In this document: piece after piece, positions 16,001-37,399 of the stretch | Layout: the number at the start of each line of letters is the position of its first letter | How positions within the stretch are numbered: position 1 is the first letter of the stretch | Assembly: GCA_041617155.1 (NCBI GenBank) | Contig: JBFJPL010000001.1 | Span: 18,834-82,833 of the forward strand | DNA length: 64,000 bases | Direction: 5' to 3' | Origin: Kiloniellales bacterium | GTDB taxonomy: Bacteria; Pseudomonadota; Alphaproteobacteria; Kiloniellales; JAKSDN01 | Notes under the pieces: model-generated | Database searches by the model: none | Told to the model about the DNA's origin: nothing | The model's input: the letters and a program-made list of their open reading frames with translations, nothing else | Translations under genes and position numbers: made by a program

Positions 16001-16014
16001 TTGAGATGGATCAA
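16001..16014. promoter_or_regulatory. FNR/FixK-type anaerobox TTGAGATGGATCAA
   Basis: Matches TTGAT-N4-ATCAA at 9 of 10 specified positions. Sits 115 bp upstream of the P-type ATPase ATG at 16130. Confidence 0.7.
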
Positions 16015-16129
16015 TGTCACGGGTCTCGGGAGTCGCCATCACCCAATGTCGATGGCAGGCGGCGGACCGATGGCGCGAAGCGGGCTCAAACGAATGGACA
16101 AGCATTCTGGTTCGGCGCGGCCATGGGGG

Positions 16130-18878
16130 ATGACTGAGCCCGGCGCCCAACCTGGCGTCCCGGCCCCGCCAGGCGGGTTCGATGTAGTGGCGCCGGCGAC
16201 ACGTCCCTGGCCCACCCTGTCCGGGGATGAAGTTCTGGCGGCTCTAGCCAGCAGCGACCAGGGTTTGTCGGCGGTCGAGGCACGGGCACGGCTGGCGACG
16301 GTCGGTCGCAATGCGCTGCCGCGTGCCAAGCGGACCGGCATGCTCGGGCTGTACCTGCGCCAATTCAAGAACCCCCTGGTCTATCTCCTGCTGGCCGCCA
16401 CGGTGGTTTCGCTTTTCGTCGGCGAGCTGGCCGACGCGATCTTCATCTTCGCCGTGCTGCAGCTTAACGCCGCCATCGGTACTTTCCAGGAATGGAAGGC
16501 CGCGGCCAGCGCCGAGGCGTTGGATGCCCTGCTTAGCAGTAGCGCCGTGGTGGTCCGCGACGGCCTACGGCGCCGAATCGACACCTATGAACTGGTCCCC
16601 GGCGACTGGGTCCGACTGGAATCCGGCACCCGAGTGGCCGCCGACCTGCGCCTGCTCAGCGGTCGGGAATTGACGGTCGACGAATCCCTTCTCACCGGCG
16701 AATCGACGCCGGTGACCAAGGACGCCGCGTTTTTGTGCCAGGCCAAGACCCCGGTCGCCGACCAGCACAACATGCTTCACGCCGGCACCACCATGCTTTC
16801 GGGGCGGGCCGAAGGGGTCGTTACGGCGACCGGAAGCCGAACCGAAATCGGCCGTATAGCCGCGGCCCTCGCGCGGGGCGAAGCGGCCGCGCCGCCGCCC
16901 TTGGTGCTCAGGCTAGAACGCCTCAGCCGGCTCGTCGGCTTGGCCACGGTCGTCCTGATCGCGGCTCTGGCCGCTGCCCAGATCGCCCAGGGCACGCCTC
17001 TGGCCACGGTCTTCCTGGTCGCCGTGGCGCTGGCCGTGGCGGCCATACCCGAGGGCCTGCCGGTGGCGATCACGGTGGCGTTGGCGATCGCCACCAGCCG
17101 CATGGGACGGCGCAACGTGATCGTACGTTTTCTGCCGGCGGTCGAGGGTCTGGGCGCCTGCACCCTGATCGCCAGCGACAAGACCGGCACCCTGACCTGC
17201 AACGAGTTGACCGTGAAACGGGTCCGCCTGTTCGGCGACGGCGCGCCGGATCAAGCCGTCGAGATCGGCGGCGAGGGGTTCGAGCCGCGTGGCGACATCC
17301 GTCTTGCCGGCCGCGCTCTCGAACCGCTGGAAGCCGAAGCGCTCAGCCGGCTCGCGGCGTCGGGCGCCCTGTGCAACGAAGCCAGCGTCCGTTTCACCCC
17401 GGCCGGGACCGAACGCGTGGGGGACACGGTCGACGTCGCCTTTCTGGTGCTGGCGGCCAAGCTGGACCTGGACTTAGCGGCCCTGCGCTGCGCCGCGCCG
17501 CAGCTCGGGCTGGTGCCCTATGAACCCGAGCGCCGCTACGGCGCGGCTTTCACGCAAGGCACGCCGGACCAGGGTGCCGCCCCCGGCGCCACGGTTCACG
17601 TCAAGGGCGCGGCCGAGGTGGTGGTGCCCATGTGCCGGGAGATTGACCGCGAGCAGGTCCTCGCCGAGGCCGATAGCCTGGCGGCGCAGGGCTACCGGGT
17701 GCTGGCGGTCGCCCGTGGCGATGCGACCCAGAAAGACGCGCGGGCGTCGGCGCCGGACGCGCTCCACGATCTGCAATTGCTCGGCCTGGTCGGGTTGATC
17801 GACCCGGTCCGCCCGGAAGTTCCGGCGGCCGTCGCCCCGCTGCCGGGCCGCGGGCATCTCGGTGCGCATGATCACCGGCGATCATCCGGAAACCGCGCTC
17901 GCCGTCGCCCGCCGCCTCGACATCGCTGAGAGCTTGGCGGAGGTGGTGACCGGCCAGGACCTGAGGGTGGCCGGGCAGGACCCCGATGCGGTCGCGCGGC
18001 TGTTCGAACGCGGCCGGGTGTTCGCCCGTGTCGAGCCGGTTCAGAAATTGACGATCGTCGAAACGCTGCAACGGCTTGGCGATGTCGTGGCGGTCACCGG
18101 CGACGGGGTCAACGATGCGCCGGCCCTGAGCACCGCGGACATCGGCGTGGCCATGGGCCGGGACGGTACCGACGTCGCGCGCGGCGCGGCGGACCTGATC
18201 CTGACCGACGACAACTTCGCCTCGATCGTTGCCGGGGTGGAGGAAGGCCGCGTCGCCTACGACAACGTGCGCAAGCTCGTCTATCTGCTGATCGCGACCG
18301 GCCTTGCCGAAATCGTGCTGTTCTTCCTGGCCATCGTCTTTGCCCTGCCGTTGCCGCTCTTCGCGGTGCAGCTCTTGTGGCTCAACCTGGTGACCAACGG
18401 CATTCAAGACGTGGCGCTGGCCTTCGAGCGGGGCGAGCCGGGTATTCTCGAGCGGCCGCCCCGGCCGCCGAGCCAGTCGCTGTTTGACCGGCGAATGATC
18501 GGACAGGTGCTGGTGGCCGGCATCTACATGGGCACCATGGCGTTCTTCTTTTACGGCTGGTGCCTGGCCCAAGGGATGGCCGAGGACATGGCGCGCAATC
18601 TGCTGCTGCTGCTCATGGTGCTGTTCGAGAACGCGCACGCGCTCAACGCGCGCTCGGAAACCTGTTCGCTGTTCGGTGTGCCGCTCGCCGCCAACCGATT
18701 CCTGATCGCCGCGATACTGGGCGCCCAGGCCCTGCATATCGGCGTCATGTATCTCTTGGCACCGGACAACCTTTTGGGCGTGAAGCCGGTGGCGTTTTTC
18801 GACTGGATCTTGGTGGCGGCGGTGGCGACTTCCCTGATCGTGGTCATGGAGGCCTACAAGCGCCTGGTCGCCCGTTAA
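16130..18878 (+). pseudogene. P-type (E1-E2) cation-transporting ATPase interrupted by a +1 frameshift in a C-run at 17835-17838
   Basis: Track ORFs 15896-17929 and 17862-18878 are two halves of one ATPase (TGES, IASDKTGTLT, MITGDHPETA, VTGDGVNDAPAL). Removing one C restores [28 protein letters not shown]. The start is ambiguous (16051-16130). Confidence 0.8.
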
Positions 18879-18930
18879 GCCGCCCGCGATAGCGCCTTGT
18901 ACGGACCGCTCGGTTCGCAAGGCAAACGGC

Positions 18931-18944
18931 TTGACTTGAGTCAA
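18931..18944. promoter_or_regulatory. FNR/FixK-type anaerobox TTGACTTGAGTCAA
   Basis: Perfect TTGA-N6-TCAA dyad, 86 bp upstream of the FtsH-paralog start. Confidence 0.7.
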
Positions 18945-19030
18945 TACCGGGCCGGCCGGCGACCAGTACCTTGGTTGAAATCAGGTTCGAAACAACTAGG
19001 TATCAGGGGTAACGGGAAGGAAGCGCTGCG

Positions 19031-35054: not shown

Positions 35055-35066
35055 GGCGCGGCCCTC

Positions 35067-35789
35067 CTACTGTTGAAGGTCTTCGGGCTTGAGGTCGGTG
35101 AAGTCGACCATGCGGCCCAGGATCTGCAAGTAGGCGATCACCGCGTCCATCTCGCTCAGGCGGCCCGGGTTGCCGTCGAAATCGGCGACCACGGCCTTGG
35201 GATAGCGCGCCAGGAGATCCTCGCTGTCGGCCTGCGGATCGGCCTGCGTCCGAAGATCCTCAAGCGCGCTCGCGATCATCTCGTCGCTGTAGGGCACGCC
35301 GACGCCGCGGTTGGCGCCGAGCCGCTCGGCTATGTCGCTGGTGTCGAGCGGCCGCTCGAGCATGAAGCCGTAGCCCGGCATGACCGATTCGGGCACCACG
35401 GCGCGCGGGTCGACCATGTGGGCGACGTGCCACTCGTTGGAATACTTGCCGCCGACCCGGGCCAGGTCCGGGCCGGTGCGTTTCGAGCCCCACTGGAACG
35501 GGTGGTCGTACATGGATTCGGCGGCCAGGCTGTAGTGGCCATAGCGCTCGACCTCGTCGCGGAACGGCCGGACCTGCTGCGAATGGCAGGTGTAGCAGCC
35601 CTCCCGCACGTAGATGTCGCGGCCGCGCAGCTCGAGCGGCGAATAGGGCCTGACACCCTCGACCTTCTCGATCGTGGACTCGACCGCGAACAGGGGCACG
35701 ATCTCGACCAGGCCGCCGATCGACACGGTGATCAGTACCAGCACCAGCATCAGGATGACGTTCTTTTCGATTTTCGCATGGCTGAACAT
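35067..35789 (-). CDS. ccoO: cbb3 oxidase monoheme subunit
   Basis: [20 protein letters not shown]. Confidence 0.93.
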
Positions 35790-35799
35790 GGTGCGCTCC

Positions 35800-37272
35800 T
35801 CACTCGGCCGGTTCGGCGGTCGGCCCGGATACCGGCATGGGTGCCATGACCCGGGCTTCGTCGCGCACCTCGCCGCGAGCGGTGCGGATCAGGTTGTAGA
35901 CCATGATCAGCGCGCCGATCAGGAACAGCACGCCGCCCAGCGCCCGGATCACGTAGAAGGGATGCATCGCCTCGACCGTCTCGACGAAGGAGTACTGCAG
36001 GAAGCCGAGGAAGTCGTAGGACCGCCACATCAGGCCCTGGAGGATTCCGGACACCCACATAGCGGTGATGTAGAAGACGATGCCGATGGTCGCGATCCAG
36101 AAGTGGACGCTGACCAACTTCTCGGAGTAGAGCCGTTCGCGCTTCCACAGGCGCGGCACCAGGAAGTAGACCGCCCCGAAGGACACGAAGGCAACCCAGC
36201 CGAGCGCGCCGGAATGGACGTGGCCGATGGTCCAATCGGTATAGTGGCTGAGCGCGTTGACCGGCTTGATCGACATGACCGGGCCCTCGAAGGTGCTCAT
36301 GCCGTAGAACGCGACCGAGACCACGAGGAAGCGCAGCACCGGGTCGGTGCGCAGCTTGTCCCAGGCTCCGGACAGGGTCATCAAGCCGTTGATCATTCCG
36401 CCCCACGACGGCATCCACAGCATGACCGAAAAGGTCATGCCGAGCGTCTGCGACCAGTCCGGCAGGCTGGTGTAGTGCAGGTGGTGCGGGCCGGCCCAGA
36501 TGTAGAGAAAGATCAGCGACCAGAAGTGGATGATCGACAGGCGGTAGGAATAGACCGGCCGCTCCGCCTGCTTGGGGATGAAGTAGTACATGATGCCCAG
36601 AAATCCGGCGGTCAGGAAGAAACCGACCGCGTTGTGGCCATACCACCACTGGGTCAGTGCGTCCTGTACGCCGGCGAACAGCGAGTAACTCTTGGTCCCG
36701 GTCCACGATACCGGCAGCGCCAGGTTGTTGACGATGTGAAGCATGGCGACGGTCACGATGAAGGCCAGGTAGAACCAGTTCGCCACGTAGATGTGCGGTT
36801 CCTTGCGCTTGACGATGGTGCCGACGAATACGATCAGGTAGACGACCCAGACCAGCGTCAGCCAAAGGTCGACGTACCACTCTGGTTCGGCGTACTCCCG
36901 GCTCTGCGTGATGCCGAAGACATAGCCGGTGCCGGCCAGCACCAGGAACAGCTGGTAGCCGAAGAAGATGAAGGCGGCTGCTTCCTCGCCGCCGAACAGA
37001 CCGGTCCGGCAGGTCCGCTGCACCACGTAGAGCGAGGTGGCGATCAGGGCGTTACCGCCAAAGCCGAAAATCGCGGCAGAAGTGTGCAGCGGCCTCAGCC
37101 GCCCGAAGGAGGTCCACTCGAGATCCAGGTTCAATATGGGGTAGGCCAGCTGAAAAGCGATGAACATGCCGGCCAGAAAGGCCGCGACCCCCCAGAACAC
37201 CGTCGCGATAACGAAGAGGCGGATCACATTTTCGTTGTATCCGCCCGCCGCCGCTTGGGCTCGCTCAGCCAT
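35800..37272 (-). CDS. ccoN: cbb3 oxidase catalytic subunit I
   Basis: Heme-copper oxidase core ([16 protein letters not shown]...). ATG at 37272 follows GGGGAGGGG. The track start at 37335 is over-extended. Confidence 0.93.
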
Positions 37273-37385
37273 TTCCCCTCCCCGCTTTCGGTCCTCGCGT
37301 CCTCCGATCGCGGTCGGGCGGGGCATCGTCCGCACGGCGCCGCGTCAGGCCGGCCGGAAACTGGCCGAACTTGTTGCAGTAAACA

Positions 37386-37399
37386 TTGACATAGGTCAA
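37386..37399. promoter_or_regulatory. FNR/FixK-type anaerobox TTGACATAGGTCAA
   Basis: In the divergent intergenic region, 113 bp from the ccoN start and 58 bp from the 37458 start. Confidence 0.78.

Follow-up and report, generated by a model that had tools for sequence, protein, structure and literature searches.

Between positions 16001 and 37399 of a 64,000-nucleotide stretch of Kiloniellales bacterium DNA (hereafter the window; positions 18,834 to 82,833 of contig JBFJPL010000001.1, GenBank assembly GCA_041617155.1) lies a cluster of genes for a cbb3 oxidase, an FtsH paralog, a P-type ATPase, hemerythrins and several small proteins, together with the gene of an FNR-type transcription regulator. 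An earlier note on this DNA had read six FNR/FixK boxes between these genes and proposed that they define a low-oxygen regulon. All six palindromes were found, five of them as perfect copies of TTGA-N6-TCAA and one with a single mismatch, and judging from their sequence context it is very probable that they are genuine sites at which an oxygen-sensing FNR-type regulator binds.

The first box, TTGAGATGGATCAA (16001-16014, perfect), lies upstream of the plus-strand gene of a type IIA (Ca2+-ATPase-like) P-type cation ATPase (16070-18878), which is frameshifted and split into two open reading frames (ORFs). The second, TTGACTTGAGTCAA (18931-18944, perfect), precedes the plus-strand gene of the FtsH paralog, a membrane AAA+ zinc protease (19031-20908), with a predicted leader of 52 nt. 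The regulator gene (21136-21924, plus strand) follows. The third box, TTGACCTAGGTCAA (22532-22545, perfect), is common to the minus-strand gene orf160, encoding a GNAT-fold protein (21959-22441), and to a plus-strand operon (22628-26916) that was assigned with Pfam and NCBIfam and comprises orf106 (a monoheme cytochrome c), orf98, pncB, a Host_attach/baeRF12 gene, a gene for a universal stress protein (USP) and a CPA2 antiporter gene. Two boxes lie close together further on: TTGATCGAGATCAA (28969-28982, perfect) serves the minus-strand hemerythrin-orf90-EEP operon (27038-28861), and TTGATCTAAATCAT (29013-29026, one mismatch) serves the plus-strand gene of Hr219, a 219-residue Hemerythrin-HHE-domain protein (29103-29762; Pfam Hemerythrin, E = 1e-12). 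The last one, TTGACATAGGTCAA (37386-37399, perfect), is located upstream of ccoN, the first gene of the minus-strand ccoNOQP-ccoGHIS set for the cbb3 oxidase and its assembly (29699-37272), and is divergent from a plus-strand gene for a DUF2189 membrane protein (37458-38258; Pfam DUF2189). The gene content described in the earlier note was borne out by Pfam.

Several of these assignments deserve detail. Orf106 carries a signal peptide and a CRACH haem motif, and orf98 (22945-23241, plus strand), directly before pncB, encodes an acidic protein of 98 residues. Neither orf98 nor orf90 has a family match in Pfam or NCBIfam, and the BCAM0308 family, tested among the small ORFs upstream of pncB, was not found there. 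Orf160 likewise has no Pfam or NCBIfam match; its AlphaFold (AF2) model has a pLDDT of 83, and the top Foldseek matches are GNAT acetyltransferases. Within the hemerythrin-orf90-EEP operon, the bacteriohemerythrin gene (Hr155; 28394-28861, minus strand) matches Pfam Hemerythrin and the NCBIfam bacteriohemerythrin model, orf90 (28069-28341, minus strand) lies between the hemerythrin and the EEP gene, and the EEP-family phosphoesterase (27038 to about 28010, minus strand) matches Pfam Exo_endo_phos. In the oxidase operon, ccoN scores 761 bits in NCBIfam, and Pfam FixQ, FixH, FixG and E1-E2_ATPase with HMA mark further members. CcoO (35067-35789) and ccoP (34026-34874) were assigned by ORF size, operon position and the annotated ccoO/ccoP genes under megablast matches, and the CcoS peptide was read from the translation. 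The plus-strand Hr219 gene and the minus-strand ccoS converge with their 3' ends overlapping by about 64 bp (29699-29762), and the overlapping Hr219 tail is Ser-rich and of low complexity.

We then compared the number of boxes with the number expected by chance from 100 dinucleotide-preserving shuffles. The window contains four copies of the strict pattern TTGAYN4RTCAA (18931, 22532, 28969 and 37386) against an expectation of 0.09, and five of the looser TTGAN6TCAA against 0.32, the fifth being the box at 16001; none of the 100 shuffles reached either count. All five perfect boxes fall within 16.0-37.4 kb, with none in the remaining 42.6 kb. On a gene map built from codon-position GC, Pfam, NCBIfam and the gene calls of a 99.96% identical contig from GCA_041579315.1, the intergenic share of 14830-40761 is only 6.1%, and it holds all six boxes, just as had been claimed. 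If up to one mismatch is allowed, 20 matches are found in total against 9.0 expected. The earlier note had named a similar motif density in coding DNA as evidence that would speak against its proposal; in the window, coding DNA contains no perfect box, and its one-mismatch matches stay near the chance level. The remark that no comparable box was seen in the other intergenic regions scanned holds for perfect boxes, but not for one-mismatch boxes, as a seventh candidate, ATGACCCAGGTCAA (39885-39898, one mismatch), is intergenic and lies just beyond the 16001-37399 interval. It stands upstream of a minus-strand gene for an APH + AAA_33 kinase-like protein (38248-39825; Pfam APH, AAA_33), which is probably a further regulon member.

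The measured distances from box centre to start codon roughly match the 58-115 bp reported earlier: 62.5 nt for the ATPase (start 16070; alternative ATGs at 16094 and 16130), 93.5 nt for FtsH, 89.5 nt for orf106, 97.5 nt for the divergent orf160, 114.5 nt for the hemerythrin, 83.5 nt for Hr219 and 65.5 nt for DUF2189. For ccoN the distance is 57.5 nt to the first GTG; taking the ATG at 37272 as the start, for which a GGAGG Shine-Dalgarno sequence is present, it is 120.5 nt. An extra weak box with one mismatch, TCGACGTTCATCAA, is seen at 22457-22470, directly upstream of the orf160 start and 75 bp from the 22532 box.

Class II FNR promoters have their box centred at -41.5, which puts the start of the -10 hexamer 23 nt past the box. 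We examined each gene-facing side of the boxes, the candidate at 39885 included, and NANNNT was observed at offset 23-24 on seven of the nine sides, the exceptions being those toward the ATPase and DUF2189. At offset 23, the -10-like hexamers are TACCTT for FtsH (18931 box), GATATT for orf106-pncB on the plus strand and GACACT for orf160 on the minus strand (both from the 22532 box), CATCTT for Hr219 (29013 box, plus strand, toward 29103), CAGTTT for ccoN (37386 box, minus strand) and GATAGT for the APH/AAA_33 gene (39885 box, minus strand); the hemerythrin Hr155 (28969 box, minus strand) has TAGAGT at offset 24. The spacing was calibrated on 102 non-redundant perfect boxes from loci outside the window with both sides scored, in which NANNNT occurs at offset 23 on 51 of 204 sides, compared with about 9 at neighbouring offsets. 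A scan for consensus sigma-70 promoters over 15.7-30 kb found no -35/-10 promoter, as expected for activator-dependent promoters, and a terminator scan gave nothing informative. The boxes at 28969 and 29013 each face one of the two divergent hemerythrin genes with their centres 44 bp apart, which fits back-to-back divergent promoters.

We next considered which protein might read the boxes. The product of 21136-21924 is an FNR-type (FnrL/FnrN-like) regulator with Pfam cNMP_binding, HTH_Crp_2 and Crp domains, and its residues 23-255 align with Aliivibrio fischeri FNR. In this alignment, C31 and C34 correspond to the first and second cysteines of the A. fischeri C-x2-C-x5-C cluster and C130 to the central cysteine of that protein, whereas C42, the third of the N-terminal cysteines, falls two residues later, giving C-x2-C-x7-C, a spacing typical of FnrN and FnrL. 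The ETVSR recognition helix aligns with ETISR of FNR and ETVSR of FixK2. The alignment to A. fischeri FNR thus confirms the Fnr-like N-terminal Cys cluster and the ETVSR helix that had been pointed out earlier. Among NCBIfam models, FnrL (NF045989) is the best with 189 bits, below its cut-off of 300, and FixK (NF050806; 161 bits, cut-off 300) and Fnr (NF008365; 121 bits, cut-off 228) are also below theirs; since the FnrL score is under its cut-off, we call the regulator FnrL-like and not a curated equivalog. Its closest relatives among GTDB species representatives, with at most 63% identity, come from metagenome-assembled genomes (MAGs) of Rhodospirillales and Kiloniellales, in which fnr retains its orf160 neighbour and not the rest of the cluster. 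Orf160 adjoins fnr in four of the related loci (L001-L003 and L005) as the only fnr neighbour kept in the closest relatives, and in L005 a perfect box lies between the two genes. Autoregulation of fnr in the window was considered and rejected, there being no box with one mismatch or fewer upstream of the gene.

The main rival explanation is that the boxes are functional but are read mainly or additionally by another CRP/FNR-family regulator encoded outside the window, such as a FixK driven by FixLJ or an NO-responsive protein of the Dnr/NnrR type, with the resident Fnr being only one input or only a target. This explanation keeps some weight because the target sequences of alphaproteobacterial FNR, FixK and DNR are common to these subfamilies and indistinguishable (PMC2908626). 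It is also in line with the regulator scoring under the FnrL cut-off while matching both the FixK model and the FixK2 structure, with the FtsH paralog of relatives adjoining nap or nir genes, often under Dnr/NnrR-type control, and with the cluster and fnr being unlinked in a related Kiloniellales MAG. On the other hand, neither the ETVSR helix nor any of the four cysteines is missing from the resident protein, which is the sole CRP/FNR-family member encoded in the 64 kb, and fnr adjoins cbb3 oxidase genes in many alphaproteobacteria (PMC2908626). On balance, we consider another main or additional reader unlikely.

To follow the boxes in Kiloniellales/Rhodospirillales relatives, related contigs were found via the FtsH protein and 80 metagenome loci via pncB. 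Three units, namely orf98-pncB-(Hap)-USP-CPA2, hemerythrin-(USP)-EEP and the FtsH paralog, recur with boxes at corresponding intergenic positions in L080 (from a Kiloniellales MAG), L081 (a JGI contig) and L089; the gene order of the pncB operon is identical in L080 and L089. A box stands upstream of orf98-pncB in all ten loci that have the adjacent pair, the window counted. The FtsH orthologues of L080, L081, L089 and L167 have near-boxes upstream with the spacing seen in the window: the FtsH-orthologue near-box TTGACCTGGGTCAT is followed by TATGGT at offset 23, and the L167 near-box TTGATCTCGATCAG by AAGACT at offset 23. In L080 and L089 the orthologous box is found some 120 bp ahead of the hemerythrin gene and is followed at offset 24 by TAGATT or TAGGTT; the hemerythrin-EEP linkage also occurs in L080, L089 and L096, and orf90 adjoins the hemerythrin gene in L096 too. 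Additionally, 11 metagenome loci have an APH/AAA_33 homologue next to island-type pncB; L102 and L104 show a single box common to divergent APH/AAA_33 and orf98-pncB genes. This co-occurrence and the common box support 39885 as a seventh site. In the cultured relative Dongia sedimenti (L059), seven perfect boxes fall within 20 kb that include homologues of FtsH, Fnr and pncB, and on plasmid p2 of Burkholderia sp. JP2-270 (L083) there are eight within 31 kb around pncB, CBS, phaZ and acs, with a perfect box upstream of the plasmid pncB. These two are comparable box-dense hypoxia clusters in cultured organisms.

The FtsH paralog of the window has full-length Pfam FtsH_ext, AAA, AAA_lid_3 and Peptidase_M41 domains, and with its Walker A, Walker B, SRH and HEAGH motifs intact it is, by motifs, catalytically intact. 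It is only about 50% identical to the FtsH of a 3.7-Mb Sinorhizobium meliloti replicon, which we take to be the chromosome, and so stands no nearer to it than to the FtsH of Neisseria and Salmonella (47-48%). Its identity rises to 73-80% with copies near nap, nir, polyhydroxybutyrate (PHB), P-type ATPase or hypoxia genes, and in the window as well as in L080, L081, L084, L089 and L167 its neighbours are hypoxia, nap, nir or ATPase genes. The usual housekeeping ftsH neighbourhood is tilS-ftsH-folP. A housekeeping FtsH was rejected on the low identity to the S. meliloti FtsH and on gene context, and the identity pattern and the gene context together support the placement of the window protein in a specialised FtsH paralog clade. 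A conserved leader of about 190 nt separates the FNR-type promoter from the start of the FtsH paralog in L080 (4085-4275), L081 (1800-1990) and L089 (1542-1732); hairpins with four compensatory pairs are predicted in it from these three sequences only, and it has no Rfam match. The FtsH gene of the window lacks this leader and has its own of about 52 nt.

The ATPase unit is less clear. The Pfam domains Cation_ATPase_N, E1-E2_ATPase, Cation_ATPase and Cation_ATPase_C are split over two ORFs, and the best NCBIfam matches are IIA Ca-ATPase models, each under its cut-off. A tblastn comparison with an intact 932-residue homologue places a +1 frameshift at about 17834-17838, where the frame switches in a CCCC run (GTC GCC C CGC TGC, which should read V-A-R-C). 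The 99.96% identical contig of GCA_041579315.1 carries the identical split. The frameshift may be that of a real pseudogene or a homopolymer sequencing error, and the unit may be a pseudogene.

Several observations weigh against reading the cluster as one regulon under its resident regulator. The 16001 box is the weakest of the six: no NANNNT occurs at offsets 22-24 (the hexamer is CATCAC), no conservation support was found for it in the relatives, and the ATPase gene that it precedes is frameshifted. The 37386 box has no NANNNT at class II spacing toward DUF2189, and the regulon membership of that gene is uncertain. Upstream of fnr, no box with one mismatch or fewer was found, the only candidate, at 21029, being a half-site that departs from the motif at two positions. 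The Kiloniellales MAG has fnr and the cluster on separate contigs, and homologous FtsH, ATPase and pncB genes occur without boxes in L084, L086 and an Azospirillum plasmid (L082). Furthermore, with the target sequence common to the FNR, FixK and DNR subfamilies (PMC2908626), a regulator encoded elsewhere could read the boxes.

Could the palindromes then be chance or non-functional sequences, and the cluster a coincidental neighbourhood? The 16001 box, with neither a -10-like hexamer nor comparative support, would suit such a view, as would the coding one-mismatch matches, which occur at background frequency. Against it, the observed counts were reached by none of the 100 shuffles, the placement is exclusively intergenic, and phased -10-like hexamers come together with conservation at orthologous positions. 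We therefore regard chance as barely credible.

Beyond the cluster, the left flank (1-15768) is devoted to oxygenase-dependent aromatic-acid catabolism, with two FAD monooxygenases, a TRAP transporter, a cupin dioxygenase, an FAA hydrolase, MarR and pca genes, and ends with an RTX-repeat protein gene (14830-15768, plus strand). On the other side, an SDR gene (39970-40761, plus strand) is followed by the right flank (40800-64000), with PilZ, ABC transporters, ccm cytochrome c maturation genes and an AMP-binding enzyme. No FNR box was found in either flank (1-15768; 40800-64000). No RNA genes were found in the window by Rfam or tRNA scans.

Another reading is that the 22-kb region arrived by horizontal transfer, as a mobile genomic island carrying a hypoxia cassette. 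Consistent with such a history, pncB, the FtsH paralog, USPs, APH/AAA_33, hemerythrin and EEP genes appear in shuffled orders across lineages, plasmids and chromids, and transposase genes flank the cluster in L080. In the window, however, GC and skew are flat across the borders, the codon-position GC of most genes is like that of the flanks, no tRNA is present, and Pfam scans of the main ORFs within and beside the cluster found no integrase or transposase. The term island used in the earlier note is apt only for a cluster, given that GC deviation and tRNA are lacking and that no mobility gene was found among the scanned ORFs; we judge an origin as a mobile island improbable. An origin from a known plasmid was also unsupported, as megablast against plasmids matched only the cco genes, with 75-80% identity.

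Taken together, it is likely on the sequence evidence that the boxes are operators of class II promoters that depend on an activator, and that an FNR/FixK-family dimer reads them, most likely that of the 21136-21924 protein. The proposal of a coordinated low-oxygen module with its own Fnr-type regulator is supported by four independent in-silico lines, namely statistics, promoter geometry, conservation and regulator features, and from these we infer the oxygen dependence, the identity of the binding protein and the physiological roles of the units. Following established FNR biology, the regulator would retain a [4Fe-4S] cluster on C31, C34, C42 and C130 and dimerise as oxygen falls. The dimer would bind TTGA-N6-TCAA sites whose centre is about 41.5 bp ahead of the transcription start and recruit RNA polymerase to promoters without a -35 element; starts are accordingly predicted near 18979, 22580 (plus strand), 22497 (minus), 28934 (minus), 29061 (plus), 37351 (minus) and 39850 (minus). 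The cbb3 oxidase with its assembly genes, the FtsH paralog, the GNAT-fold protein, the cytochrome c-orf98-pncB-baeRF12/Host_attach-USP-CPA2 operon and the two divergent hemerythrin units, one of which also includes the EEP phosphoesterase, would be co-induced, probably with the APH/AAA_33 kinase-like gene and nominally with the frameshifted Ca-type P-type ATPase. Their joint outcome might be low-oxygen respiration, NAD salvage, ion homeostasis, proteome remodelling, and oxygen binding or buffering.

This arrangement was compared with known systems. The closest are the alphaproteobacterial FnrL/FnrN/FixK regulons. These, such as those of Rhodobacter sphaeroides FnrL and Bradyrhizobium diazoefficiens FixK2, use the same TTGA-N6-TCAA box and, like the window, have the regulator gene near ccoNOQP-ccoGHIS, with an FNR-type cysteine set and an E--SR helix. 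The window differs from them in that its regulator is below both equivalog cut-offs, its fnr has no autoregulatory box, and hemN and hemA were not found among the scanned ORFs. In the predicted alphaproteobacterial core FNR regulon, cco, fixG, fixI, USP and regulator genes are linked (PMC2908626), whereas a term search of the core FNR lists did not find the FtsH paralog, orf98-pncB, CPA2, hemerythrin-EEP or APH/AAA_33 (PMC2908626). In B. diazoefficiens, host-attachment proteins and USPs are induced by microoxia, and some are marked as FixK2 targets (PMC6515984).

A striking match in function is the low-oxygen-activated (lxa) locus of Burkholderia cenocepacia, which has a TGA-N6-TCA motif at 17 intergenic points and an internal Anr-like CRP/FNR regulator. 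Persistence under anoxia requires this locus, whose low-oxygen-induced genes encode, among others, six USPs, a cytochrome c, the ATP-dependent Zn protease BCAM0309 (130-fold induced) and the cation-transporting ATPase BCAM0318 (PMC3721108). The window likewise clusters a USP, an FtsH-like protease, a cation P-type ATPase and a cytochrome c with an internal FNR-like regulator and multiple intergenic motifs. By comparison, lxa is betaproteobacterial, comprises 50 genes, includes polyhydroxyalkanoate (PHA), fermentation and ribonucleotide reductase genes that are missing from the window cluster, and is without the cbb3 oxidase, and its main text lists no pncB or hemerythrin (PMC3721108). The plasmid-borne Burkholderia FtsH is only about 48% identical to that of the window, so the likeness to lxa is functional, compared by description and not as orthology.

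Two further regulons overlap in content. Rv2004c of Mycobacterium tuberculosis has an APH/AAA-like architecture. It belongs to the DosR regulon together with the Ca-type P-type ATPase ctpF, pncB2 and several USPs (PMC9180918, PMC11203133). The functional content thus overlaps with the window by description, in another phylum and under a two-component response regulator with Dev boxes. Anr of Pseudomonas aeruginosa is an FNR-type O2 sensor that activates the cbb3 oxidase, and to our knowledge no FtsH paralog, pncB or EEP gene is a member of its regulon; in contrast to the clustered units of the window, Anr targets are dispersed round the genome. Anr also regulates an oxygen-binding hemerythrin that supports microoxic fitness (bioRxiv 10.1101/802934) and activates USPs (as cited in PMC3721108). 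The earlier view that the units other than cco are poorly characterised as oxygen-regulated functions is therefore too strong, with precedents in lxa (PMC3721108) and DosR (PMC9180918, PMC11203133), in the microoxia and FixK2 data (PMC6515984) and in the Anr-regulated hemerythrin (bioRxiv 10.1101/802934). The biochemical roles of most cluster members remain obscure.

Such clusters have already been described from other bacteria, and the window is a new example and no new regulatory principle. It offers a compact, well-delimited instance of an FNR regulon from an alphaproteobacterial lineage that has received little study and adds conserved candidate FNR targets for this group, namely the FtsH paralog, orf98-pncB with the release-factor-like baeRF12, hemerythrin-EEP and the APH/AAA_33 kinase. 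The overlap with the lxa locus and the DosR regulon suggests, by analogy, a recurrent oxygen-starvation toolkit recruited by unrelated oxygen regulators, and it is this recurrence, together with the conserved, family-less orf98, orf90 and orf160, on which the interest of the locus mainly rests. Tentatively, and with more doubt than confidence, we suggest that the cluster could be the alphaproteobacterial version of a widely shared, unnamed 'hypoxic quiescence' set that moves between lineages and is rewired under the oxygen regulator of its host, FNR here and in the Burkholderia lxa locus and DosR in mycobacteria, with orf98, orf90 and orf160 as new obligate partners. If this is true, the set would comprise orf98-pncB, baeRF12/Host_attach, USPs, CPA2, the FtsH paralog, the APH/AAA_33 kinase, the type IIA ATPase and hemerythrin-orf90-EEP, plus a Lon-like protease in relatives, and orf98, orf90 and orf160 would be the partners of NAD salvage, hemerythrin and FNR, respectively.

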